50,588 bases of DNA from a virus. Lineage: Duplodnaviria; Heunggongvirae; Uroviricota; Caudoviricetes. Location of the stretch: positions 1 to 50,588 of the IMG/VR virus record IMGVR_UViG_2537561945_000005. One strand, given 5' to 3'. The first letter of the stretch is position 1; every line of letters starts with the position of its first letter. The notes under the pieces are model-generated. The model saw only the letters and a program-made list of their open reading frames with translations, was not told where the DNA came from and searched no databases. The position numbers and the translations under genes were made by a program. Below, piece by piece: positions 1,369 to 50,588 of the stretch.

Positions 1369-1444
1369 GCCGATATAGCTCAGTTGGTAGAGCAGCGCAT
1401 TCGTAATGCGAAGGTCGTAGGTTCGACTCCTATTATCGGCACCA
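1369..1444 (+). tRNA. thrW: tRNA-Thr (anticodon CGU)
   Basis: 76-nt sequence GCCGATATAGCTCAGTTGG...GGCACCA with anticodon loop TTCGTAA and encoded CCA end; cloverleaf-compatible. Confidence 0.9.
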
Positions 1445-1447
1445 TTT
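1399..1447 (+). repeat. attL core: 49-bp direct repeat covering the thrW 3' half
   Basis: Identical 49-bp string ATTCGTAATGCGAAGGTCGTAGGTTCGACTCCTATTATCGGCACCATTT recurs at 43107-43155. Confidence 0.8.
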
Positions 1448-1458
1448 AAATCAATAAG

Positions 1459-2622
1459 TTACACATCATTAGTACCTTCCTTATTTTTTGACTGGGACAA
1501 ATTTGGGACCGATGGGTTCAGGATCGAGTCTATTTGCCGTGCGTGTTCGGTAAGGTGATTAGGTGCAAGGTGAGCATATCGACGAACCATTTCGATAGAC
1601 TCCCAGCCTCCCATTTCCTGTAACACTGACAACGGGACTCCGGCTTGAACCAGCCAACTTGCCCAGGTGTGTCTCAAGTCGTGAAATCTGAAATCATCAA
1701 TACCAGCCCGTCTCAGCGCCGCTTTCCAGGCTGTGTTTGCGTCATACCGCATCTTCCTTACTGTTGGCGCTTTCGTTCCGTCTGGTTTGGTACAGCTTTC
1801 CTTGTACACAAATACCCAACGGTGATGATTCCCGATTTGTTTTTTCAATACGCGACATGCAGTATCATTCAGCGCAACGCCAATTGCGCGGTTTGATTTA
1901 CTCTCTTCCGGGTTTATCCATGCCACCCGGCGCTGCATATCTATTTGTTGCCATTCAAGGTTGATGATGTTCGAGCGTCTTAAGCCTGTTGCCAGTGCAA
2001 ATTCAACAACAGACTTTAATGGCTCCGGACATTCATCAATCAGCCTTTGTGCTTCATGGGGCTCCAGCCAGCGGATCCGTTTATTCTTTGGTTGAGGCAC
2101 TTTAATAATTGGTGCCTTATCCAGCATTTTCCATTCACGCTCTGCGGCTCTTAGTAGGGCCTTTATAAATGAAAGATGCGTAGCCTTCGTTGCAACGGAC
2201 GCTGGTTTTGGCGTGTATTCTGGAACAGGTTTCCCTTTTTTTCTGCATGCTTCTGCCCTGAGTTTCCAGTTTTCCTCATGACGCCGGTTCGTCATTTTCT
2301 GCATTGCTGAATAAATTTTTGATTCAGTGATGTCTCTTAGTTGCATCCCTGCGAAATGTTGAAGCCAGAATCCGATCCGGCTTTTGTCATCGTCCAGTGA
2401 TTTCTTATGTGCTTTCTCTTCGAGCCACCTGACACACGCTTCCTCAAACGTCATATCAGGTATTTCACCAAGTTTGCTGACCCGCCATGCTTCAGCCTTT
2501 AGCTTGTCATGGAGCTCTGTCGCCTGCCTTTTGTCCTTTGTTCCAAGAGACTGTTTAAATCTTTTACCGTTCGGCAATGTGAAACTGGCGTACCATATTT
2601 CACTTCTGCGGAAGAGTGACAT
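1459..2622 (-). CDS. int: Tyrosine integrase, P22 Int type
   Basis: 387-aa protein near-identical over its length to my recollection of P22 integrase ([19 protein letters not shown]...[15 protein letters not shown]); its 3' end lies 15 bp from thrW. Confidence 0.9.
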
Positions 2623-37522: not shown

Positions 37523-38437
37523 ATGCATCGTATAGACACAAAAACCGCGCAGAAGGATAAGTTCGGCGCGGGTAAGAACGGTTTTACCCGTGGTAACCCC
37601 CAGACCGGCACGCCAGCCACCGATCTGGATGATGACTACTTTGACATGTTGCAGGAAGAACTCTGCAGCGTGGTGGAGGCATCCGGTGCCAGTCTGGAGA
37701 AGGCGCGGCACGACCAGCTGCTTACCGCGCTTCGTGCGCTGCTGTTAAGCCGCAAGAATCCGTTTGGCGATATCAAATCGGATGGCACTGTGCAAACGGC
37801 TCTCGAAAACCTTGGTTTGGTGGATGATTCCGGTGTAGTAGGCCGCTTGCTTAATACTCAAGTGATTACCTCATCTGGTACTTACACCCCAACACCGGGT
37901 ACCCGGAAAATTAAGGTAATTCTTACCGGGGGAGGTGGCGGTGGTAGTTCTGTCATCGCCACATCATTTTCTCAGACGGCGTTTGGAGGTGGAGGTGGCT
38001 CTGCCGCAACCTGCATCGGTATTTTTGACCTTGAAGATATCAGTGATTTTTCTGTCGTTATCGGAGCAGGTGGAACAGCTGATAATCCAGGTGGGACATC
38101 AACATTTAATGGAATGTCAGCCGGTCGCGGTGGTAGTGGATCCGGCGTAAACACTCCGTCAATTGGTTCTGGTGGTGCAGATGGAACAGCTACTGGCGGG
38201 CTAATCAATATCCATGGTGGCTATGGTAGTGACGGTCAGCAGGGAAGTTATTACTCATTTGGTAATGGTGCGGCTTCGTTCTGGGGGGGAGGTGGTCGTG
38301 CTGGTTCTGCTAATGGTGTTGCAGCCAAAGCATATGGTGCTGGCGGAGGTGCTGCTTATGACACCGCTTTTTCAGGAGTGCTAAAAGCCGGTGGAACAGG
38401 AGCGCCTGGGATCTGCGTGATTGAGGAGTTTGCATAA
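37523..38437 (+). CDS. Tail fibre protein with Gly-rich C-terminal domain
   Basis: 304 aa; N-terminus [47 protein letters not shown] typical of fibre N-termini; Gly-rich distal half. Confidence 0.8.
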
Positions 38438-38850
38438 TGAATTACGCATTAATTAAAAATAATGTCGTCGTAAATACGGTTGTCTGTAATTCAGATAACG
38501 ATGCAAAAAAATTATTTCCGGATTACACCGTCATTAATATTACTGGCATTGCCGCAGGAATAAACTGGACATATGACGGTACTAATTTCACGGCGCCAGT
38601 TATTGAAAAATCAGTTGCCGAATTAGCCGCGGAAAATATGGCAATATCAAACTCTGAGTATGCTCGCGCAACAACTCAAATCGATTTGTTGAACGATCAG
38701 ATCCAGGATGCTGACTACACTGACACAACTGAGAACGCAGTGAAGTCGGCACTTACAGAGTGGACTGAGTACCGTAAATCATTACGTGCATATATCAGGG
38801 CTGGTGACTGGACACAGTCACTGCCTATTCAGCCAGATTCGGTCAGTTAA
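38437..38850 (+). CDS. Tail fibre assembly chaperone
   Basis: 137 aa directly after the fibre gene with ATAATG coupling. Confidence 0.72.
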   Translation: MNYALIKNNVVVNTVVCNSDNDAKKLFPDYTVINITGIAAGINWTYDGTNFTAPVIEKSVAELAAENMAISNSEYARATTQIDLLNDQIQDADYTDTTENAVKSALTEWTEYRKSLRAYIRAGDWTQSLPIQPDSVS

Positions 38851-38926: not shown

Positions 38927-39796
<870 letters not shown>

Positions 39797-39927
39797 CTAA
39801 GCCTTTGAATTTACAAGTACAAAAAAGATACTTTTCCTCATAATGTGAATTAATTTTATGTTTCGTTTGATGATTGGACCGGTCTCGAAAACCGGAGTAG
39901 GGGCAACTCTACCGGGGGGGCAAATCC

Positions 39928-41266
39928 CATAAGCGCTAACTTAAGGGTTGTGGTATTACGCCTGATATGATTTAACGTGCCGATGAATTACTCTCACGAT
40001 AACTGGTCAGCAATTCTGGCCCATATTGGTAAGCCCGAAGAACTGGATACTTCGGCACGTAATGCCGGGGCTCTAACCCGCCGCCGCGAAATTCGTGATG
40101 CTGCAACTCTGCTACGTCTGGGGCTGGCTTACGGCCCCGGGGGGATGTCATTACGTGAAGTCACTGCATGGGCTCAGCTCCATGACGTTGCAACATTATC
40201 TGACGTGGCTCTCCTGAAGCGGCTGCGGAATGCCGCCGACTGGTTTGGCATACTTGCCGCACAAACACTTGCTGTACGCGCCGCAGTTACGGGTTGTACA
40301 AGCGGAAAGAGATTGCGTCTTGTCGATGGAACAGCAATCAGTGCGCCCGGGGGCGGCAGCGCTGAATGGCGACTACATATGGGATATGATCCTCATACCT
40401 GTCAGTTCACTGATTTTGAGCTAACCGACAGCAGAGACGCTGAACGGCTGGACCGATTTGCGCAAACGGCAGACGAGATACGCATTGCTGACCGGGGATT
40501 CGGTTCGCGTCCCGAATGTATCCGCTCACTTGCTTTTGGAGAAGCTGATTATATCGTCCGGGTTCACTGGCGAGGATTGCGCTGGTTAACTGCAGAAGGA
40601 ATGCGCTTTGACATGATGGGTTTTCTGCGCGGGCTGGATTGCGGTAAGAACGGTGAAACCACTGTAATGATAGGCAATTCAGGTAATAAAAAAGCCGGAG
40701 CTCCCTTTCCGGCACGTCTCATTGCCGTATCACTTCCTCCCGAAAAAGCATTAATCAGTAAAACCCGACTGCTCAGCGAGAATCGTCGAAAAGGACGAGT
40801 AGTTCAGGCGGAAACGCTGGAAGCAGCGGGCCATGTGCTATTGCTAACATCATTACCGGAAGATGAATATTCAGCAGAGCAAGTGGCTGATTGTTACCGT
40901 CTGCGATGGCAAATTGAACTGGCTTTTAAGCGGCTCAAAAGTTTGCTGCACCTGGATGCTTTGCGTGCAAAGGAACCTGAACTCGCGAAAGCGTGGATAT
41001 TTGCTAATCTACTCGCCGCATTTTTAATTGACGACATAATCCAGCCATCGCTGGATTTCCCCCCCAGAAGTGCCGGATCCGAAAAGAAGAACTAACTCGT
41101 TGTGGAGAATAACAAAAATGGTCATCTGGAGCTTACAGGTGGCCATTCGTGGGACAGTATCCCTGACAGCCTACAAAACGCAATTGAAGAACGCGAGGCA
41201 TCGTCTTAACGAGGCACCGAGGCGTCGCATTCTTCAGATGGTTCAACCCTTAAGTTAGCGCTTATG
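39928..41266 (+). mobile_element. IS186 (IS4 family), complete, with 10-bp target-site duplication
   Basis: 1339-bp element with terminal inverted repeats CATAAGCGCTAACTTAAGGGTTG and direct repeats GGGCAAATCC at 39918-39927 and 41267-41276; target has the GGGG-N6-CCCC pattern. Confidence 0.9.
39983..41095 (+). CDS. insL: IS186 transposase InsL
   Basis: 370 aa from MNYSHDNWSAILAHIGK..., matching E. coli IS186 InsL. Confidence 0.9.
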   Translation: MNYSHDNWSAILAHIGKPEELDTSARNAGALTRRREIRDAATLLRLGLAYGPGGMSLREVTAWAQLHDVATLSDVALLKRLRNAADWFGILAAQTLAVRAAVTGCTSGKRLRLVDGTAISAPGGGSAEWRLHMGYDPHTCQFTDFELTDSRDAERLDRFAQTADEIRIADRGFGSRPECIRSLAFGEADYIVRVHWRGLRWLTAEGMRFDMMGFLRGLDCGKNGETTVMIGNSGNKKAGAPFPARLIAVSLPPEKALISKTRLLSENRRKGRVVQAETLEAAGHVLLLTSLPEDEYSAEQVADCYRLRWQIELAFKRLKSLLHLDALRAKEPELAKAWIFANLLAAFLIDDIIQPSLDFPPRSAGSEKKN

Positions 41267-41873
41267 GGGCAAATCCCCCTCTCTCCGCCACTTTATCAAT
41301 GACTTATCTCCCGACTTCCCGCCTTGCTTTTCCTAAACAGAACAATCGTAGAATATTCTTGAAGGGTTAGATCGTCACTGTTTTCTGTTCGATACTGTGA
41401 CATTCAGCACTTGATTCGCTATGGATCTGACAGGAAGGTTTCGAGCGAAAATCTGCAGTTATTCAGTCGTTTTCTTATCGGTCACCATTATTCTTTTAGA
41501 CATTGATCCTACAAAGCTGCCGCAAAGTTGGTGGTGGGAACTGAAGTTGCGTAGAGAAGGGGTCAATACCCGGAGGCAAACATGGGCTGGCAAAAGTGTA
41601 GCGGTATTAGGCGCAGCTATTTAGCCTAGTTATGTTTTATGAAAACTTGATATCATATAAGTGTCTTACTTATTGGCTGTAAATAAGGTTTTCTAAGGAA
41701 TTGTTTCTTTAGTATCATTTGTAACTGTAACGGAATTTATAATCCTTTGCTTTATTTTTACGGTATTTTTTATCACACCCTATTTTTTATGTGGTTTTTT
41801 ATACTGAAGTTTGGCAAAGTGAACTTTATATGCATATACTTCATCCTGGTTTCAGTTAAATTGGGTGGATGAT

Positions 41874-42617
41874 ATGGCAACTACATGTTCAGTTATATTG
41901 ATTTTGGAGTCCTTTGATGTTTATTTCGGAAAAGAGAGTGTGTTTCTGGATAGAGGTTTATCTGTACTTGTCGACTCTAGCTATAGAGATTTTTTCCTGA
42001 CATATCCTGAAAGAGTGATAGTGGCGGATTTTGGCGCTGAGTTTATTAGTCGCTATTTGAAAGCTAATAACTTAAGGGATATTTCTGATTGTAGGGAATA
42101 TCCATCTTATTTAAAAATAAACTTTGCTGACTTCAGTTTAATTAAAGGATTAATTAGTTGGGCTAATCACTGTGCTGAATATATAGAAATTTTTGATGAG
42201 TCTATTGCTTTTACATGTCTCTCTGCATTTTCTTCTGAAAAACAATTTGGAGTATTTCTGTTTGGATGTTTGAAAAGCACAGGGGCTAAAGTTAAAACGA
42301 TTATTCATACGGATTTATCTGCACCATGGCGTCTTAAGGATATATCATCAAGATTATATCTCAGCGAAAGTTTACTAAAGAGGAAATTGAAAGAAGAGGG
42401 GGTATCATTCAGTAAGATCATACTTGATGAGAGGATGCAAATGGCTGAATATTTACTCAGCACTCGTTGTTATCCTATTAGTAAAGTAGCTAAGGTCTGT
42501 GGTTATGCCAGTGTCTCATACTTTACTTATGTATTTAGACGTTATTTTGGTGTTTCTCCAAGTCAATACCCTCAGAGGAGTTCAGAAAGTAAAATTCTTA
42601 CTCACCAGGGAATCTGA
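41874..42617 (+). CDS. AraC-family transcriptional regulator (AppY/EnvY-like)
   Basis: 247 aa with C-terminal AraC-type HTH (ISKVAKVCGYASVSYFTYVFRRYFGVSPSQY); AT-rich gene; first ATG with GGTGG upstream, GTG alternative at 41865. Confidence 0.75.
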   Translation: MATTCSVILILESFDVYFGKESVFLDRGLSVLVDSSYRDFFLTYPERVIVADFGAEFISRYLKANNLRDISDCREYPSYLKINFADFSLIKGLISWANHCAEYIEIFDESIAFTCLSAFSSEKQFGVFLFGCLKSTGAKVKTIIHTDLSAPWRLKDISSRLYLSESLLKRKLKEEGVSFSKIILDERMQMAEYLLSTRCYPISKVAKVCGYASVSYFTYVFRRYFGVSPSQYPQRSSESKILTHQGI

Positions 42618-42658
42618 TCATTGTTCTTGCCCCCTTATTTCCAGACAGGGGGTGTATC

Positions 42659-42886
42659 TTAAGTTAACGTTACCCGCTGACGTCGATATTCTCGCGGAGA
42701 GCGATAACCCAACGCACTGTGCGGATGGTTTTCATTGTAATGTTCGATCGCCACTGCAAGATTATGCAATGCCGTTCTTACATTCGGTTTCGGCATGAAC
42801 GCGATGTAGTCTTCCTTCATCGTTTTCACGAACCTTTCTGCCATTCCATTACTCTGAGGACTGCTGATTACCCATGAGGAGTACAA
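42659..42886 (-). pseudogene. Transposase remnant (DDE/rve integrase-core C-terminal fragment)
   Basis: ~70-aa fragment ...[19 protein letters not shown]...[14 protein letters not shown] typical of an rve-type transposase C-terminus; no upstream catalytic region. Confidence 0.55.
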
Positions 42887-43106
42887 TTAAACGGGTTAAT
42901 CAGTTTCTCCATTTGAAAGAAAAAAGACTTCTGTACTGTTTGATATCACCGCTATTTTCTTATTTTCTGTGCAGGTCGTAGTGGGACAAAACTGAGACAC
43001 ATAAGGCCTCACAATGGCTTGCAAGGCTTTACATGTTTTGATGTGGTGGGACGTGTGAGCGCAGTGTTGATGGGGTAATACTTTGAATTAGAAGCGGATT
43101 CTTATG

Positions 43107-43155
43107 ATTCGTAATGCGAAGGTCGTAGGTTCGACTCCTATTATCGGCACCATTT
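43107..43155 (+). repeat. attR of the prophage / attL of the downstream island: partial thrW 3' copy
   Basis: Exact 49-bp copy of 1399-1447; no tRNA 5' half, so not a functional tRNA. Confidence 0.8.
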
Positions 43156-43315
43156 CAAACTCTTCCCAAGTCTACCGAAATCAACTAAAAGCTCGTATAC
43201 TGCGGTTTCTGGCCCGTATCTTATCTCCTGTTATCAACTAGACTCAACCGAAATCAAGTCGCAGTTGGGGGCATAAGTGGGGGCATTTTGTGTTCGGTCT
43301 AGGGAGATGCCCCCA

Positions 43316-44524
43316 ATGAAACTTAATGCGCGACAGGTAGACGCAGCTAAACCCAGAGAGAAAGCCTATAAGCTGGCAGATGGTGCTGGTTTGTATCTTG
43401 AGGTTGTTCCCTCTGGTTCCAGATACTGGCGGATGAAATATCGCTTCAATGGAAAAGAGAAGCGTATGGCCTTTGGTGTCTATCCGGCAGTGTCCCTTGC
43501 ACAAGCGAGGGCACTGCGTGACGACGCCAAGAAAAAGCTTGCCGAAGGTATCGATCCATCGCTTGCCAAGAAAGAAGAAAAGCTGGTTCGAGATGTGCAG
43601 CTAAATAATACGTTTCAGGCTGTGGCACTTGAATGGCATGGAACGAAGGTGAGCCGATGGTCAGAAGGTTATGCCTCGGACATTATCGAAGCCTTTAATA
43701 AAGATATTTTTCCCTATATTGGCCAACAACCGGTGAATGAAATCAAACCGCTGGTTCTGCTTAATGTGCTGCGTCGAATTGAAAGCCGTGGCGCGACAGA
43801 GAAGGCCAAGAAGGTTCGCCAGCGTTGCAGCGAAGTCTTTCGTTACGCCATCGTAACCGGTCGTGCGGAATACAATCCTGCAGCGGATCTTACCAGCGCG
43901 ATGTCAGGGCATGAATCGAAGCATTATCCCTTCCTTACTGTTGAGGAGTTACCAGACTTTTTTAAAGCTCTCGCAGGCTACACAGGAAGCCCGTTAGTTG
44001 TTCTTGCGGCACGTCTGCTGATCCTCACGGGAGTTCGCACTGGCGAACTCCGAGGTGCTTTCTGGAGTGAGTTTGATCTTGAAAAAGCGGTGTGGGAGAT
44101 ACCTGCCGAGCGTATGAAGATGAAACGGCCTCACCTTGTCCCCCTCTCTACCCAAGCGCTGGAAATCGTACAGCAACTCAAAGTGATGTCAGGGCAATAT
44201 CCACTGGTGTTCCCGGGACGTAATGATCCCCGCAAGACGATGAGTGAAGCGAGTATTAATCAGGTTTTTAAGCGGATTGGATATACGGGGAGGGTAACGG
44301 GGCATGGTTTCCGTCACACGATGAGTACGATTTTGCATGAGGAAGGTTTCAATACAGCGTGGATTGAAACCCAGCTGGCTCACGTTGATAAAAATGCGAT
44401 TCGTGGGACGTATAACCATGCGTTGTATTTGGAAGGACGTAGGGAGATGATGCAGTGGTATGCGGACTATATAAACGCTAATCATAATTCATGTATTTCT
44501 TTGCTGGTGAACGCTACAAAGTAG
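43316..44524 (+). CDS. int: Tyrosine integrase, P4 type
   Basis: 402 aa with N-terminus MKLNARQVDAAKPREKAYKLADGAGLYLEVVPSGSRYWRMKYRFNGKEKRMAFGVYP and C-terminal R..HxxR..Y catalytic region; adjacent to the tRNA-derived att copy. Confidence 0.85.
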   Translation: MKLNARQVDAAKPREKAYKLADGAGLYLEVVPSGSRYWRMKYRFNGKEKRMAFGVYPAVSLAQARALRDDAKKKLAEGIDPSLAKKEEKLVRDVQLNNTFQAVALEWHGTKVSRWSEGYASDIIEAFNKDIFPYIGQQPVNEIKPLVLLNVLRRIESRGATEKAKKVRQRCSEVFRYAIVTGRAEYNPAADLTSAMSGHESKHYPFLTVEELPDFFKALAGYTGSPLVVLAARLLILTGVRTGELRGAFWSEFDLEKAVWEIPAERMKMKRPHLVPLSTQALEIVQQLKVMSGQYPLVFPGRNDPRKTMSEASINQVFKRIGYTGRVTGHGFRHTMSTILHEEGFNTAWIETQLAHVDKNAIRGTYNHALYLEGRREMMQWYADYINANHNSCISLLVNATK

Positions 44525-44765
44525 ATTTGACGTGATGATAGGATTGATTAGGAAAATGACCTAAAACCGTATATTTTGATACTTAAGTTTAAACATTAGC
44601 CCTATATCCGATCGCCCTTTGTTACCTACACTTCTATCTTTTTTAGGTTCTAGGGCTGAAAGATTTGAAGATAAGTTTATAAATATCAATAGATTACATG
44701 ATTGTGTTGGTTCTTGGGTAGCCGTAACGCCTAGGGCGGTAGCGTACTTAAGATGAGTATAAAAA

Positions 44766-45974
44766 ATGAACAGTAACTATATGCCATTCACACAACGAGA
44801 TAGTCTCGGAAGATACTATACAAAAGAATCCATAAGTGCATTATTGGTTTCTCAGATGAAAGCTGAAAAAGTCAATAATATTATTGATTTAGCTTCTGGT
44901 GAGGGGAGCTTAACCTATGCTGCTTTAGACCGATGGAAGAATGCAGAAGCATATTCTTTGGATATAGAATCTCGGATGTCAAAAAAAGTATGTGATAATC
45001 TTACTCATATTGTAACAGATGCCCTTGTTCATTCATTTCCTGAAATGCTTGCCCGACATCAAGGAAATTTTGATGTTGCAGTATGTAATCCTCCATTCAC
45101 TCTCCCTGAATGGAGGGATGATTATTTTAAAATCATTAGTGAGATTGGCGCAGATAAATATATATCTGTCTCAAAATATGTCCCAGCAGAGATAATATTT
45201 ATATCTCAAGTCATCAGGTTTCTTAAAAAGGGCGGTGAGGCTGGAATAATTTTACCTGATGGTATATTTACAGCAAGAAAGTTTATAGGTTTAAGACGAT
45301 ATTTATTGAATGAACATTCAATTACAAAAGTCATTGAATTGCCTAGGAATATCTTCAAAAGGACAGAGGCTAAAACACATATTTTAATTTTTAATAAAAA
45401 AATTATGCCTCATCATAAAATACAATTACATTGTATAACTAAAGATGGGGAATTGTCGCCTCCTGTTTTAATTAGAAAAGAAGATGCGGTTGAGAGAATG
45501 GACTACTCTTATCATTATAATAAAAATGAAGGTAAAGGGTTTAGCACAATAGGGATGCTTAAAAACATTTCAATTTTTAGAGGTAGGTTTAATTCAAAGG
45601 AAATTACGGAACATGTTTTTCATACGACAAAATTTAGTGGTGATGAAAAGTACATTAAATTCCACTGCAACTCTGTAGAAGAATTGAAGCCATCAAAATT
45701 AGATGTCATTGCTAAGCCTGGTGATATATTAATAGCAAGAGTTGGGCGAAATTTTCATAAAAAAATATTGTTTGTTGAGAGCGGCTATTCTTATATCAGT
45801 GACTGTATTTTTCTGATACGAGCCTCTGGTGGAGATAAGAAAAAACTATTTGATTTTCTTTGTTCTCAAGATGGGCAAGAGGAATTATCTCGAGCGAGTA
45901 GTGGTGTAGCCGCACAACATATTACAATGGATGCATTAAAAAAAATACATCTTGTAAGGATTAAACATGACTGA
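44766..45974 (+). CDS. N6-adenine DNA methyltransferase, gamma class (M.TaqI-like layout: catalytic domain plus C-terminal putative TRD)
   Basis: Motif X GRYYTKESI, motif I IIDLASGEGSL and motif IV NPPF in N-to-C order within the first ~115 aa; ~200-aa C-terminal domain; AT-rich. Confidence 0.75.
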   Translation: MNSNYMPFTQRDSLGRYYTKESISALLVSQMKAEKVNNIIDLASGEGSLTYAALDRWKNAEAYSLDIESRMSKKVCDNLTHIVTDALVHSFPEMLARHQGNFDVAVCNPPFTLPEWRDDYFKIISEIGADKYISVSKYVPAEIIFISQVIRFLKKGGEAGIILPDGIFTARKFIGLRRYLLNEHSITKVIELPRNIFKRTEAKTHILIFNKKIMPHHKIQLHCITKDGELSPPVLIRKEDAVERMDYSYHYNKNEGKGFSTIGMLKNISIFRGRFNSKEITEHVFHTTKFSGDEKYIKFHCNSVEELKPSKLDVIAKPGDILIARVGRNFHKKILFVESGYSYISDCIFLIRASGGDKKKLFDFLCSQDGQEELSRASSGVAAQHITMDALKKIHLVRIKHD

Positions 45975-47673
45975 TGTGGAATTAGATAGTAATTTTCTTA
46001 TCGAGGAACGAGCTGATTATATTGATGAGGATACGATAAAAAATAATACTATCAGATCTGGAGAGTTTTTCGATATTATACATAATGCTCTTATATCCCC
46101 AGGCATCAAACTTATAGTTGGTCCTAGGGGATGTGGTAAAACACATTTGATGCGTTATGCTTGGGTTGAATGTAAAAACGATGATAACGCACCATTACCA
46201 CTCTATGTTTCTTTTAATAAATATTTTAAGTTAGAGCCGCTTTTAAAAAATAAACCAAATGCAATTGATCTCTTTCATAAATGGGTATTAGCAAAGATAC
46301 TACTCTCTGCTTATGAAATTGCTTGCGATATTGAAGATTCTGAATATCTTGATTTGTCAACGATACTCATAGCGGATAAAGAGTTCCTAATTAATTTAAT
46401 CGTAAGGCTTGAGCAGGGTCTTTCGCCATCATTAGAACAAGAAAACATTGTTCAATTGATCAGTGTTTCTTCTGTCATATCCTCGTTGAGTTCACTATGT
46501 GATTGGCTTGAACGTAAAAGAGTCATTATTTTATTAGACGATGCAGCAATAAGCTTAACTCCTGAATATCTTTACGAGTTTTTTGATATTGTACGTAGTC
46601 TAAAAACCTCAAAAATAGCTTTAAAGGCATCGGTTTATCCTGGAACAACCGAATATGGCCCAAGGTTTCATGTTGCTCATGATGCTGAAACAATTGATGC
46701 TTGGATTTCGGTACAGCACCCTAATTATTCCTCAGTGATGGATGCTATAGCGCAGGCAAGGTTTCCTGGGTATGATGGCATTCCGGATGACTTGAAAGAG
46801 TTATTTAAATTCTCAGCATTTGGTATTCCACGTTCTTTTTTGATGATGTTAAGAGATTATCAAACAACTTTAAGTCAGACAACTCAGCAAAAATTTAATA
46901 AAATAATTGAAAGGTATGTTGAGCTTAGACTCAGCGAATACAGTTCACTAAAAGATAAGCTACCTCGATTGTTTGACATTGTTTCATTAGGTGAATCACT
47001 TTTATTAAAAGTAGTCGAATTACTCAAGGAAAGTAACTCCCAATATAAAGAAGAGAAACAAGTCATAATCGGTATAGAGAAAAATGATAATGTTTATTTT
47101 TCTCGACTCACTAAGCTATTAATTGAAACAGGGCTTTTTTATAATCTTCCTGATATTTCTCATGGTGATGGGCGTACTTATGAAAGATATATACCTCATT
47201 ATGCTTTATTAATAAAGGAAAGAGTGTTTAACGAAGGAAGTAGAGGTTTTTCTCCTTCTCAGATTATTCAAAAAATACTAAGAAAGAATGCTAAGCATCC
47301 TGTCAGAAGAAACATTTCATCATTATTCAATGCTGAGCAACTTGCGAGACTTAAACTAACTTTACCTCCATGCAATAACTGCAAGACTCCGCGATTGACT
47401 GACAATCAAAAATTTTGCCATCATTGTGGGAATCAATTGATTGATGAGTCGGCCTATAATCAGTGCATGTCTATTCCACTGTCAAAAGTACCACATCTAA
47501 CATCTTGGCAAATGCAAAAACTATCTGGGCTGGAAAAAGTAAAAACTATAGGAGATGTATTGTCTTTACAAGACCCTGGGAGTGAGTTAAGAAAAATTCA
47601 CAGAATAGGACCCAAAATTGCCAATAAAATTATGGACAAAGTGTTATTACATGTTGAAGAGTTTTTGTCTTAA
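45967..47673 (+). CDS. P-loop NTPase with C-terminal zinc ribbon and helix-hairpin-helix
   Basis: Walker A GPRGCGKTHLMR, Walker B VIILLDDAA, C-terminal CNNCK...CHHCG and HhH-like IHRIGPKIANKI; 8-nt overlap with the methyltransferase gene. Confidence 0.7.
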   Translation: MTDVELDSNFLIEERADYIDEDTIKNNTIRSGEFFDIIHNALISPGIKLIVGPRGCGKTHLMRYAWVECKNDDNAPLPLYVSFNKYFKLEPLLKNKPNAIDLFHKWVLAKILLSAYEIACDIEDSEYLDLSTILIADKEFLINLIVRLEQGLSPSLEQENIVQLISVSSVISSLSSLCDWLERKRVIILLDDAAISLTPEYLYEFFDIVRSLKTSKIALKASVYPGTTEYGPRFHVAHDAETIDAWISVQHPNYSSVMDAIAQARFPGYDGIPDDLKELFKFSAFGIPRSFLMMLRDYQTTLSQTTQQKFNKIIERYVELRLSEYSSLKDKLPRLFDIVSLGESLLLKVVELLKESNSQYKEEKQVIIGIEKNDNVYFSRLTKLLIETGLFYNLPDISHGDGRTYERYIPHYALLIKERVFNEGSRGFSPSQIIQKILRKNAKHPVRRNISSLFNAEQLARLKLTLPPCNNCKTPRLTDNQKFCHHCGNQLIDESAYNQCMSIPLSKVPHLTSWQMQKLSGLEKVKTIGDVLSLQDPGSELRKIHRIGPKIANKIMDKVLLHVEEFLS

Positions 47674-47743
47674 TTTTGATGGCATGTACTTGTCAATCGT
47701 GTCTTTCTTATCTGAAAAGTTTAATTTAAAAAGAGTCGGGAAA

Positions 47744-48739
47744 ATGGAACTAGAATCAAAAGAGGATTATGAAGAGACCACTCATCATAATGTGGCGTCC
47801 TCAGTTGTCACTGCAACCCATGATAACTTAGATGGAAGAGAGTTTTTTGAACTATGTAGTAATCCAGCTCTAGTTTTTTCGTTTGAGACACACAAAAAAT
47901 TTAATGAGTTACCTGTTGATAGCAAGGAATCCCCGTTAGATCTTTTTATAGCTAATACAAAGCAACTTCACTTGTTAAGATCTGGTGATATTTCAAACAC
48001 ATTAAGCCATCTGTTGTTATTAGGTTATGTGTCTGCAGCCGAAAGTTATTTGCGAGCTCTTATCAGAAATCTAATTAATCATGATGAATATATACAGTCT
48101 ATAGTTTCTGATAAGGCCGTTAGTTATGCAGCGGCACAACACCATAAAAAGGAGTTATTACCAGAAGCTTTACTTGAGGACTTTTCATTGGCAAGCCCTT
48201 ATAATGTTTTTGAAACATTAAAGGACATTATTGGAATGAAAGGACAACGACCAATCGAAATGATGAAATGCTCAAGCGAATTCATGAAAGTTTGCGAGTT
48301 AAGGCATTGTTGTGTTCATCGATTTGGTAAGTTGGGTTCGAAAAATGCAATCCGACTAGGATTGGCTGAACATATGAAGCACTTAGAAAAACCGATAATA
48401 CTCAATAATGATGATCTCGAGCAAATCGCATTTATTGTTGAGAATTTTATTAGAACTTTGAATAATACCGTTTTCAAATTTATAATTAATCGTACAGTTG
48501 AGAACAAAAATAAGGAAAAAGGAGGGGAAAGACTATATGATTCTGAATGGACATGGGTGTTTGAAAAAGATATAAGTCGATACGAAAAGTATTATTCAAT
48601 ATTTAGTGCCAAAAACGATACCCTTCCCGGATTATCATTACAGGATTCATATCAACTTTTTGTTAATGCATATAAGCCTAAACTTCCTGCAAGAAAAAAT
48701 AAAAAAAAACTGAAGAAAATTAACGCCACTACTATCTGA
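47744..48739 (+). CDS. Hypothetical protein, third operon gene (possible HEPN-like R-x4-H motif)
   Basis: ~331-aa ORF after the ATPase; contains ELRHCCVHRFGK fitting R-x4-H in a predicted helical context; upstream in-frame starts at 47618 and 47684 are possible. Confidence 0.55.
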   Translation: MELESKEDYEETTHHNVASSVVTATHDNLDGREFFELCSNPALVFSFETHKKFNELPVDSKESPLDLFIANTKQLHLLRSGDISNTLSHLLLLGYVSAAESYLRALIRNLINHDEYIQSIVSDKAVSYAAAQHHKKELLPEALLEDFSLASPYNVFETLKDIIGMKGQRPIEMMKCSSEFMKVCELRHCCVHRFGKLGSKNAIRLGLAEHMKHLEKPIILNNDDLEQIAFIVENFIRTLNNTVFKFIINRTVENKNKEKGGERLYDSEWTWVFEKDISRYEKYYSIFSAKNDTLPGLSLQDSYQLFVNAYKPKLPARKNKKKLKKINATTI

Positions 48740-48925
48740 AAATATTAGTAATTTTTACTTGAAATGGCAGGGCGTTATTTTTTTTTTGATTGAATATGGG
48801 TAATGTTAAATATCTAATCATTTGAAACTTCTAGCTATATTAATAAATGTAATGTGTGAATGATGATGGTGCTTGCTTTAACTATAGATTGTTATTCCAT
48901 ATAGAAATTAGGTAATGACTCCAAC

Positions 48926-49429
48926 TTATTGATAGTGTTTTATGTTCAGATAATGCCCGATGACCTTGTCATGCAGCTCCACCGATTTTGAGAACGACAG
49001 TGACTTCCGTCCCAGCCTTGCCAGATGTTGTCTCAGATTCAGATTATGTCGCTCAATGCGCTGAGTGTAACGCTTGCTGATAACGTGCAGCTTTCCCTTC
49101 AGGCGTGATTCATACAGCGGCCAGCCATCCGTCATCCATACCACGACCTCAAAGGCCGACAGCAGGCTCAGAAGACGCTCCAGTGTGGCCAGAGTGCGTT
49201 CACCGAAGACGTGCGCCACAACCGTCCTCCGTATCCTGTCATACGCGTAAAACAGCCAGCGCTGACGTGATTTAGCACCGACGTAGCCCCACTGTTCGTC
49301 CATTTCAGCGCAGACAATCACATCACTGCCCGGTTGTATGCGCGAGGTTACCGACTGCGGCCTGAGTTTTTTAAGTGACGTAAAACCGTGTTGAGGCCAA
49401 CGCCCATAATGCGTGCACTGGCGCGACAT
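48926..49429 (-). CDS. insB: IS1 transposase InsB
   Basis: 167 aa matching IS1 InsB. Confidence 0.88.
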
Positions 49430-49623
49430 CCGACGCCATTCATGGCCATATCAATGATTTTCTGGTGCGTACCGGGCTGAGAGGCGGTGTAAGTGAACTG
49501 TAGTTGCCATGTTTTACGGCAATGAGAGCAGAGATAGCGCTGATGTCCGGCAGTGCTTTTGCCGTTACGCACCACGCCTTCAGTAGCGGAGCAGGAAGGA
49601 CATCTGATGGAAATGGAAGCCAC
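49348..49623 (-). CDS. insA: IS1 InsA
   Basis: 91 aa [43 protein letters not shown]... matching IS1 InsA. Confidence 0.88.
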
Positions 49624-50033
49624 GCAAGCACCTTAAAATCACCATCATACACTAAATCAGTAAGTTGGCAGCATTACCAGCAGATGTAAAGAATACCGCT
49701 TTGTTAATCTGACTTGTAGACTTCTTTGGGATTGTATCACTTTCACTCATAATCATTTATTCCATTAATTAAATTCGCACTGGATAGAAGGTACTACCTC
49801 TCACAGAGTAGCAAAGTTCAACTGGCTATGCGGCGTTAATCGGAATGCATGGTGGAATGTGAATCGCCACCGGTTTTTTAGGGGGTTGTAGAGTGGCATC
49901 GGAAAGAGGTTTTTAGGGGGGGAGGTTGATAATACCGCGCCCCCATAATCTTGCCATCTCTTACATTGAGATGTTAAAAGCTACAAATGCTCTCCCTATT
50001 TTTCAATGTAGACATTTATAGCAATATAAAAAT

Positions 50034-50588
50034 TTATTGTTCAGCTTTTTCAACAACAAAACCATTTTGCCAAACAAACACAATCAAGAGTTCAATATTA
50101 ACAATACCCCATTGATTAGAAATGGCGACAATTTCACCAGAAGGAAGTGTAATCAATGCATCTTCGTTGATATGATAGCGACTCTTTTGCTTCTCTGGTA
50201 TCTGATCGATAAGTATAACCGTACGTTTTTTAAAGTCTTCACTTAATCCATTTATTAAATCATTATAACTTGCAGGGTTAAATTGTTTTATACAATCGCG
50301 TAATAACTCAAGCGCTAACTTACGTTTATTAAGTTTTTTATCTTTGCATATATACCACGTATAGCCCTTCTCTTTTTTCTGACTGCTAATTAGCTGCTCA
50401 TCACGTTTTTCACGAAACTTAACTTGATATTCTTCCAATTCAGGAACCGGTATGATTTGCTCTGCATTGATCAGAACATCATCATTAAATCTATAAGGCG
50501 TCAGACGAACACATCGAATGTCTACCCCTTTATCTCTTAACCAAATCGCAGTGGTAGTCAGTTCCTTGCTAAAATCCGATGAAGCCAA
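50034..50588 (-). CDS. Hypothetical protein, N-terminally truncated by the window edge
   Basis: 184 codons open to the window end; AT-rich; no family recognised. Confidence 0.4.
   Translation of the reverse strand: MASSDFSKELTTTAIWLRDKGVDIRCVRLTPYRFNDDVLINAEQIIPVPELEEYQVKFREKRDEQLISSQKKEKGYTWYICKDKKLNKRKLALELLRDCIKQFNPASYNDLINGLSEDFKKRTVILIDQIPEKQKSRYHINEDALITLPSGEIVAISNQWGIVNIELLIVFVWQNGFVVEKAEQ

Follow-up and report, generated by a model that had tools for sequence, protein, structure and literature searches.

The closest described relative of the gene considered here is PatE, a regulator encoded in prophage CP-933H/Sp1 of Escherichia coli O157:H7 (Bender et al. 2012, as cited in the review PMC10877973). 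The review equates patE with Z0321 and places an AraC-type helix-turn-helix at the C-terminus of its product; Z0321 is listed elsewhere as 'putative regulator, prophage CP-933H, O-island 8' (PMC2907692). [quoted passage not shown] PatE is named among the regulators of AR2 in PMC10057817. Expression of Z0321 was 6-fold RpoS-dependent, with a high array signal (PMC2907692), and ECs0287 was induced at the transition to stationary phase (PMC2241611). The targets, the direction of regulation and the RpoS dependence discussed below are taken from this review and from citing papers on the O157 orthologue. The review further describes two AraC-like proteins encoded by O157:H7 prophages, PsrA and PsrB, which activate gadE/hdeA and have an indirect repressing effect on type III secretion; PsrB acts through the part of the hdeA promoter that PatE uses (PMC10877973). 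AppY is known to feed into acid resistance and RpoS (PMC10057817).

The window, by which we mean the whole stretch of 50,588 nucleotides analysed (IMG/VR record IMGVR_UViG_2537561945_000005), contains a 41.7-kb prophage integrated at the tRNA-Thr gene thrW, and the patE-type gene lies inside it (Table 1). The last 28 nt of thrW (1417–1444) recur exactly at 43125–43152, where 0 such repeats are expected by chance, and the patE-type gene ends ~490 bp before the attR copy (43108–43155). A preliminary description of the DNA had placed an AraC-family gene between IS186 and a transposase remnant near attR, and this placement is correct. A P4-type integrase island begins directly after attR, at a point equivalent to the annotated Sp1/Sp2 boundary in Sakai. 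Assignment of patE to this downstream P4-type/BREX island was considered and dropped, since attR lies between the two.

Table 1. Features of the thrW prophage and of the patE module, with positions in the window
Feature	Position	Strand	Evidence
thrW tRNA-Thr(CGU) with attL core	1369–1447	+	ARAGORN, sequence
Prophage integrase ORF	1459–2622	−	ORF list
LEM-3-like GIY-YIG domain gene, flanking the module on its left in thrW prophages	38927–39700	−	Pfam PF22945, RefSeq WP_000355484.1, phrog_5356
Left part, serU 3' fragment (tRNA nt ~25 onward)	39876–39927	+	96% identity to K-12 serU nt 25–77
IS186/IS421 insertion (IS4 family)	39928–41266	+	DDE_Tnp_1, RefSeq 'IS4-like element IS421 family transposase'
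Right part, fossil tRNA-Ser serU 3' fragment (CCA at 41288–41290) and 279 bp of serU-yodB spacer	41267–41568	+	K-12 identity
AT-rich spacer between serU-derived DNA and conserved cassette	41569–41715	+	Composition, comparison
Upstream region travelling with the gene, probable own promoter	41716–41873	+	DNA homology
patE-type gene, 247-aa AraC/XylS-family regulator	41874–42617, stop codon included	+	ORF, Pfam, RefSeq, homology
IS3-family transposase C-terminal remnant (ISEc48/IS2-like)	42659–42886	−	Pfam rve_3 61 bits, annotated pseudogene
attR, where the thrW 3' end is repeated; right prophage end	43108–43155	+	Repeat, sequence

The open reading frame can be read from a GTG at 41865 (250 aa) or from an ATG at 41874 (247 aa). 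Three observations support the ATG: the RefSeq protein WP_000246050.1 is annotated from there (744 bp), a Shine-Dalgarno-like GGTGGA stands immediately 5' of it, and the resulting N-terminus, MATTCSVILI, aligns with those of YdeO (MSLVCSVIFI), GadW (MTHVCSVILI) and AppY (MDYVCSVVFI). The 247-residue AraC-type regulator of the preliminary description is therefore upheld. The protein consists of an N-terminal regulatory domain (residues ~1–135) and a C-terminal double helix-turn-helix (~138–238), and within the latter (residues ~161–237) Pfam HTH_AraC and HTH_18 score 61.2 and 57.4 bits against gathering cut-offs of 26.6 and 33.6, respectively. [quoted passage not shown] Among entries in the PDB, its sequence matches the GadX DNA-binding domain, CsvR, Rns and ToxT. 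An AF2 model made from a shallow 10-sequence alignment (mean pLDDT 69.5) has a DNA-binding domain with pLDDT ~90 and an N-terminal half with pLDDT 40–70, residues 71–124 falling below 50. The modelled DNA-binding domain superposes on GadX 3mkl (TM 0.83–0.86) and also on those of AraC and MarA.

The protein is 243/247 identical (98.4%), without gaps, to both Sakai ECs_0287 and EDL933 WP_000246059.1, and shares one 90% cluster with the O157 protein. Four residues distinguish it from the studied O157 protein (D26E, L29S, Y37S and P233S), and all but P233S fall within the N-terminal regulatory domain. The thrW prophage of O157:H7 contains no other AraC-family gene. In the resequenced EDL933 genome the gene lies at 309101–309844, and counting genes from the integrase onward fits Z0307 to Z0321. 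The order GIY-YIG gene, serU fragment, patE, IS3 remnant, attR and P4-type integrase is identical in the window, Sakai and EDL933. The loci likewise share the serU fragment and AT-rich region upstream, with DNA 98.8% identical over 1.6 kb, and the proteins are of equal length, each encoded at the right-hand extremity of its thrW prophage. The window protein combines near-identity, over its whole length, to the EDL933/Sakai protein with a cargo position beside attR in a prophage integrated at thrW. Judged by sequence and position, the window gene is an orthologue of PatE, where the equation of Z0321 with ECs0287 is made through position and uniqueness rather than through a sequence carrying the Z0321 label. 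The two carriers differ: the window prophage is full-size (41.7 kb) with Mu/SfV-type tail genes, whereas Sp1 is a 10.6-kb lambda-like remnant, and unlike the O157 locus the window copy has an IS186 insertion, 607 bp ahead of where patE starts. The gene is real but ordinary, and as PatE has been named and characterised it is already known. The preliminary description had suggested a prophage-borne cargo regulator of the kind that rewires acid resistance or virulence, and this is borne out by the orthology with PatE, a gad/hde activator and LEE repressor (PMC10877973). It had not recognised the gene as one with a name and a known function, and it had asked for an overexpression experiment, which, patE having been characterised, has in essence been done.

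A homology comparison with AppY, EnvY, GadX and Rns, proposed in that description, places the window protein in the same AraC/XylS class, with YdeO and GadW nearest. The alignment scores are 145 bits for YdeO, 139 for GadW, 110 for AppY and 77 for EnvY. The assignment to an 'AppY/EnvY type' thus holds at the level of the subfamily but not below it, YdeO (35% identical over the full length) and GadW (33%) being closer than AppY (28%) or EnvY, which matches over the C-terminal 127 residues only (39%). AppY and EnvY, both regulators from the DLP12 region, belong to other orthologous groups than the window protein, and EnvY groups with AdiY (57%). AppY shares with the window protein its place in a prophage, as an AraC/XylS regulator after the tail-fibre genes near the prophage end on the K-12 map. 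GadX is 35% identical over the C-terminal 161 residues, and all three K-12 proteins, YdeO, GadW and GadX, have the same AraC/XylS two-domain layout. These three act on the acid-fitness island (gadE, hdeAB). Their genes belong to the chromosomal core or the acid-fitness island itself, whereas the window gene is phage-borne and lacks an EvgA-dependent context of the safA-ydeO type. The best NCBIfam model for the window protein is YdeO, over the full length, followed by GadX; orthology to either was rejected, since YdeO (NF007407) scores 146.3 bits against an equivalog cut-off of 348, indicating a paralogue, and GadX (NF007432) scores 109.6 bits against a cut-off of 500 and aligns in its C-terminal part only. 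The best full-length Foldseek matches of the model are Rns, CsvR and ToxT (E about 1e-10, roughly 19% identity), AraC-type virulence regulators whose N-terminal domain binds fatty acids and which share the order of cupin-like N-terminal domain and double helix-turn-helix; the TM is only ~0.39, confidence in the N-terminal half of the model is low, and the regulons differ (pili and toxins as against acid resistance). A clade 47–54% identical to the window protein, encoded between Q and holin in lambdoid prophages, may or may not be Psr, and a PatE-like gene was not found in the EDL933 potB/potC prophage region (1.62–1.69 Mb).

The gene is also carried by free phages. A 97%-identical gene is present in the isolated lambdoid phages mEp332, PhiR70_1 and ev099, where it occupies the b region, from the stf/tfa tail fibre to attP-int, and patE is found in addition at the right end of a prophage at the lambda att site beside ybhB-bioA. 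Lambdoid and other temperate phages carry the cassette in their b region beside attP, and in the prophage it therefore adjoins attR. Another prophage has the ~0.9-kb cassette (158 bp upstream plus the coding sequence) in its Q-holin slot, and the DNA at 41716–42610 is 84% identical to that of the 83%-identical relative in this other slot. In the set of 5,426 complete E. coli genomes, 653 (12%) carry the gene, in single copy, and on that count most related prophages lack it. Carried by free temperate phages, placed in an accessory slot, provided with its own upstream region (its promoter putative) and dispensable, the gene has the properties of a phage moron.

What lies to the left of the cassette varies: thrW prophages have the GIY-YIG gene, MS15047 has IS1, and ev099, mEp332 and PhiR70_1 have other DNA. 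Lambda-att phages with the regulator lack the GIY-YIG gene. The conservation of the cassette alone argues against a fixed local target. This bears on the suggestion that the regulator mainly serves the phage or neighbouring cargo, such as the GIY-YIG gene, the tail-fibre inversion module or lysogeny, the effects on gad and hde being side effects of overexpression. In lambdoid prophages, relatives at 83% and 52% identity do lie in the interval from the late antiterminator Q to the holin gene, which is associated with late transcription of the phage, and the family that the protein matches along its full length, phrog_1450, is annotated 'unknown function' in PHROGs. The closest cellular paralogues, YdeO, GadW and GadX, all have the acid-fitness island as their target. 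Given these paralogues, the varying neighbour and the lowered gad/hde expression of the EDL933 null mutant (PMC10877973), we regard a service to the phage as very improbable.

On the right the gene has a fixed neighbour, the IS3 remnant, which is annotated 'ISEc48 Family: IS3 partial' in Sakai and adjoins the gene in the free phages too. The IS186 on the other side has its transposase at 39977–41095 and 23-bp inverted ends (CATAAGCGCTAACTTAAGGGTTG), with a 10-bp target duplication, gggcaaatcc, at a GGGG-N-CCCC target within the serU fragment; the site is empty in strains SCU-118 and AR_452, in Sakai and in the phages. The gene thus lies amid IS debris, with IS1 added in other strains, as might a neutral or decaying passenger that is unexpressed or inactive here and plays no part in host regulation. 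This reading draws further on the close alleles, which differ almost only by amino-acid changes (1 synonymous against 4–10 non-synonymous, pN/pS 1–2.6); the counts are too small for significance, and at this short range no purifying selection is seen. Variants in the 90% cluster are frameshifted or truncated, for example the 308-aa read-through P0020, and many entries are partial. The base composition (33–35% GC) makes H-NS binding plausible. Over the longer distance to the 83%-identical relative, dN/dS is 0.17, in both domains. We also looked for signs of a pseudogene, which the preliminary description had named as grounds for refutation: the reading frame has no internal stop and the coding sequence is intact according to PGAP in every genome listed. 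No allele is commoner than that of the window, WP_000246050.1, which was seen on at least 1000 contigs. The integrity of the frame, the dN/dS value and this common allele led us to drop the pseudogene reading. In published arrays the O157 orthologue shows good, RpoS-dependent expression in stationary phase, so the locus is not permanently silent (PMC2907692, PMC2241611), and mutants of this orthologue have phenotypes (PMC10877973). Since the gene is moreover kept by viable phages, we think it unlikely to be a mere passenger.

The window gene is, in our judgement, very probably a PatE orthologue serving the lysogen as a moron that activates host acid resistance. Its integrity, family, orthology, position, carriage by free phages, prevalence and longer-distance purifying selection come from the present analysis. 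In the proposed mechanism PatE, an AraC/XylS activator with two domains that belongs structurally with GadX, GadW, YdeO and Rns, would be transcribed in the lysogen from its own promoter, mainly on entry to stationary phase and in dependence on RpoS. Its C-terminal double helix-turn-helix would bind AT-rich DNA in promoters of the core acid-fitness island (hdeA −132 to −45; gadE), raising gadE, gadBC and hdeAB and so improving survival at low pH, and in LEE-positive strains it would lower the type III secretion genes. By analogy, the window allele and its strain should behave like PatE of O157, with the candidate promoter in use.

The region upstream of the gene is of mixed origin. The preliminary description had spoken of visibly AT-rich DNA with a long AT-rich leader. 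This is true of the coding sequence (GC 0.348) and of 41569–41873 (0.331), compared with 0.496 for the whole prophage, but not of 41270–41568, about half of the 584-bp leader, which has a GC of 0.435 and derives from the serU locus: over 299 bp it is 97.3% identical to the K-12 DNA immediately after serU. The serU-derived segment matches the serU locus in 5,405 of 5,426 E. coli genomes, and IS186 splits the serU fragment into two parts, the second running from 41267 onward. The AT-rich spacer that follows is present in ev099, mEp332 and Sakai Sp1 and missing at the serU locus of K-12. Homology of the module with ev099 and mEp332 begins at the start of the serU fragment. Closer to the gene, a candidate promoter, TTGGCA-18-TATACT, lies at 41811–41840; the scan that gave it returned 2 sites against 4.9 expected in shuffles. 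A hairpin after the stop codon (42628–42654) folds no better than shuffles (z = 0.6), and an intrinsic terminator was not called there. An Rfam scan of 39500–43400 (E ≤ 0.1) gave no match, and ARAGORN did not call the serU and thrW fragments.

In the b region, the patE cassette stands directly 3' of a fossil attR-type junction from a different integration site, made up of the 3' two-thirds of serU and 279 bp of the serU-yodB spacer. Carrier phages that are otherwise unrelated become homologous exactly where this tRNA fragment starts.

As to origin, we tentatively suggest that the patE block (serU fragment, host flank, AT-rich patE and IS3 remnant) may once have been bacterial-side DNA beside serU, captured by imprecise excision of a serU-integrated phage and then spread by recombination, a possibility to which we lend less than even weight. 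Such a capture may be likened to a specialised transducing phage, the recipients being lambdoid, SfV-like and other phages and the Q-holin slot. If true, the capture of patE would be a traceable case of a phage acquiring a host-regulating moron.

Biologically, a temperate phage here would plug a regulator into the core acid-stress circuit of its host (GadE, HdeAB), with raised stomach survival as the outcome. Earlier work on PatE and PsrB in O157:H7 and on AppY in K-12 has documented such connections, and what is added is modest: patE is common outside EHEC, its 12% of complete E. coli genomes including the animal-associated background of the window; viable lambdoid phages carry it; its 0.9-kb cassette occupies two moron slots; and the 'leader' holds a fossil serU attachment junction. 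No new question is opened by this, and at most the carriage of PatE might explain differences between strains in acid tolerance.

The 247-residue AraC-family regulator is very likely PatE, a protein already named and characterised, which is found here in a new strain background, as a common allele and with IS186 upstream. It shares 243 of its 247 residues with the product of the gene at the same position in O157:H7 genomes. In Sakai, this counterpart is ECs_0287 ('transcription regulator') of prophage Sp1 (300042-310627, at thrW), with an ISEc48 remnant behind it and then P4-like Sp2 and its integrase; the EDL933 copy occupies 309101-309844 (WP_000246059.1). Neither strain has another AraC-family gene in that thrW prophage. 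Z0321 has been described as a 'putative regulator' of O-island 8, prophage CP-933H (PMC2907692), and a gene count that starts at the integrase (Z0307) reaches the AraC gene at Z0321. Position and uniqueness thus make it very likely, if not proven, that the EDL933 gene is Z0321, that is, PatE. The preliminary description, which had proposed a prophage-borne AraC regulator, was therefore essentially right.

The function of PatE has been studied with the O157 allele. A patE-null mutant shows reduced expression of gadB, gadC, gadE and hdeAB; PatE activates hdeA through a site located between -132 and -45 and negatively regulates 18 genes, 6 of them LEE genes (PMC10877973). PatE, PsrB and AppY have been grouped as AraC regulators of prophage origin that feed into the AR2 system (PMC10057817), and, according to a 2025 preprint, overexpression of a Nissle 1917 homologue termed 'PatE', which may be the same gene, raised survival at pH 2.5 and the expression of AR2-AR5 genes (bioRxiv 10.1101/2025.08.01.668021). 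In O157, patE expression is greater in stationary phase (PMC10877973); as cells enter this phase, ECs0287 expression increases ~8-fold within 30 min (PMC2241611), and Z0321, with a high wild-type signal, is 6-fold lower in an rpoS mutant (PMC2907692). By analogy, these data for the O157 orthologue show that the locus would not be constitutively silent.

The DNA is E. coli chromosome, and positions 41100-43300 of the window match strains BE311 (piglet faeces), F41 and K99S at 100% identity. The last 28 nt of thrW are repeated exactly at 43125-43152 (0 expected by chance), an integrase ORF adjoins thrW, and the regulator comes after tail, baseplate and tail-fibre genes of Mu/SfV type; it is therefore inside the 41.7-kb prophage, ~490 bp from attR. 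Each feature of the setting first proposed (IS186, regulator, transposase remnant and AT-rich DNA near attR) has been located.

Features of the regulator region and of the prophage ends (window positions)
Feature	Position	Strand	Remarks
tRNA-Thr thrW	1369-1444
Integrase ORF	1459-2622	-	follows thrW
tRNA-Ser serU, 3' two-thirds	39876-39927 + 41267-41290		ends in CCA
IS186/IS421 element	39928-41266		left of regulator; 23-bp inverted repeats, 10-bp duplication gggcaaatcc
IS186/IS421 transposase	39977-41095
Regulator ORF	41865-42617	+	250 aa from GTG; 247 aa from ATG at 41874
IS3-family transposase C-terminal remnant	42659-42886	-	rve_3; right of regulator; in Sakai 'ISEc48, IS3 family, partial'
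attR, wider thrW repeat	43108-43155
P4-type tyrosine integrase	43277-44524		Pfam Arm-DNA-bind_3, Phage_int_M, Phage_integrase
HsdM-like methyltransferase	44766-45974

A gene with a LEM-3-like GIY-YIG domain (38927-39700, minus strand; phrog_5356, 'unknown function' in PHROGs) consistently flanks the regulator block on the left in thrW prophages of different kinds, namely those with Mu/SfV-like tails, those with P2/T4-like baseplates and pinE, and Sp1. The lambda-att phages carrying the regulator lack this gene. The prophage may be defective in its fibre module, since the stfP tail-fibre gene is annotated as truncated (a pseudogene) in the identical BE311 record (L001, 8424 region). After stfP come a glycine-rich ORF and a 137-aa tail-fibre-assembly-like ORF (tail-fibre end 38437-38850). 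A second integrative island lies directly past attR (43277-50588); besides the genes tabulated it holds an ORC/CDC6-family AAA ATPase gene and a hypothetical gene, and further along in BE311 come IS1 and a BREX-1 system (brxA, brxB, brxC). O157 strains have P4-like Sp2/CP-933I in the same place, and the elements at the thrW att site look like a tandem array.

The regulator ORF has no internal stop codons, and in all genomes listed PGAP annotates the gene as intact, under the name 'AraC family transcriptional regulator', so that it is not a pseudogene. The ATG at 41874 is the better start because it begins the 744-bp RefSeq CDS (WP_000246050.1), is preceded by a GGTGGA ribosome-binding motif and gives an N-terminus, MATTCSVILI, that aligns with those of YdeO, GadW and AppY. 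The GC content is 34.8% in the CDS and 33.1% in the preceding 305 bp against 49.6% in the surrounding prophage, and DNA this AT-rich is a plausible H-NS target.

Pfam HTH_AraC (61 bits) and HTH_18 (57 bits) each score above threshold in the C-terminal ~90 residues. In BLASTP against K-12 proteins, the closest are YdeO (35% over 248 residues, 145 bits) and GadW (33% over 245 residues, 139 bits), ahead of AppY (28% over 236 residues, 110 bits); GadX matches at 35% over 161 residues, AdiY at 30%, and EnvY at 39% over the C-terminal 127 residues only. Of the NCBIfam models, YdeO scores highest (146 bits over the full length; cut-off 348), followed by GadX (110 bits; cut-off 500). By these scores, the protein is a separate member of the GadX/GadW/YdeO/AppY group, without an orthologue in K-12. 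The initial label 'AppY/EnvY type' holds only loosely: YdeO and GadW are nearer, and EnvY matches at the C-terminus alone. Among solved structures, sequence matches were to the GadX DNA-binding domain (3mkl, E 4e-24), CsvR, Rns and ToxT. An AlphaFold2 model built on a shallow alignment has a mean pLDDT of 69.5 (~90 in the DNA-binding domain, 65-73 in the beta-rich N-terminal part, <50 at residues 71-124). Foldseek aligns its full length with Rns, CsvR and ToxT (E ~1e-10, TM ~0.39) and gives TM 0.83-0.86 and rmsd 1.3-1.6 Å for the GadX DNA-binding domain. Model and matches together predict the usual architecture of an N-terminal regulatory/dimerisation domain and a double HTH.

Comparison with an 83% relative gives dS 0.50, dN 0.087 and dN/dS 0.17, similar in both domains, and the family is therefore maintained as protein. 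Alleles differing by <3.5% (genomic records L003-L006, L011 and L012) show 4-10 non-synonymous against 0-1 synonymous changes (pN/pS 1-2.6), numbers too small for a test. The PatE cluster also contains a frameshifted 308-aa read-through variant (P0020). DNA similarity to the 83% relative runs from 158 bp before the ATG to the stop codon (41716-42610), limits which delimit a self-contained cassette. Its sole plus-strand promoter-like site, TTGGCA-18-TATACT at 41811-41840, is a candidate only, because the scan gave fewer sites than shuffled sequences.

That phages carry the regulator as cargo is borne out by tblastn: among 50,697 phage records, three sequenced phages, mEp332, PhiR70_1 and ev099 (Radostvirus), have the same protein (97%). 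The order in ev099 is Lom, tail fibre, tail-fibre assembly, (1.5 kb), AraC, IS3 remnant, (attP), int, xis, which places the regulator in the lambda b region; mEp332 and PhiR70_1 share this right-hand arrangement. In strain MS15047, the block is at the right end of a lambda-att prophage, beside ybhB-bioA, and in other strains it terminates different thrW prophages, beside a yagP remnant and paoD. The 0.9-kb unit (41716-42617) is present at at least 95% identity in 653 of 5,426 complete E. coli genomes, nearly always as one chromosomal copy, and many of the carriers are non-EHEC strains. The protein family is narrow, comprising the PatE cluster (1,788 members at 90% identity), relatives at 79-83% and a clade at 47-54%; PHROGs assigns the regulator to phrog_1450, 'unknown function'. 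The 83% relative (L018, 6001-6735) and the 52% clade (L014, 5001-5732) lie between antiterminator Q and holin in lambdoid prophages, a second classic slot for morons and the one occupied by stx in Stx phages. The PatE relative of the 52% clade adjoins a lipocalin gene and a DUF1722 gene.

The 584 bp ahead of the gene, at first described as a long AT-rich leader, are composite: the description fits the 305 bp before the CDS, and the rest is serU-derived sequence and host flank. Positions 41291-41568 are 97% identical to the 279 bp after serU in K-12 (the serU-yodB spacer), a flank present in 5,405 of 5,426 E. coli genomes. IS186 entered a GGGG-N-CCCC stretch in the T-arm of the serU fragment, and the empty site is seen in strains without the insertion; among the strains inspected, this element, 607 bp upstream of the regulator, is found only in those of BE311/F41/K99S type. 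Sakai Sp1, phage ev099 and phage mEp332 have fragment and flank in one piece, and the first base of the tRNA fragment is where homology among these otherwise different carriers begins. By sequence, fragment and flank together resemble an attR junction at serU and look like a fossil attR-like site inside a thrW prophage. Given this partial tRNA 3' end with its native chromosomal flank, it is simplest to suppose that the regulator block originated as chromosomal DNA next to serU and would have been captured by imprecise excision of a serU-integrated phage; the presumed donor arrangement was not found. Only two points, the apparent fossil serU junction and the presence of the cassette in two slots, take these results slightly beyond the PatE literature consulted.
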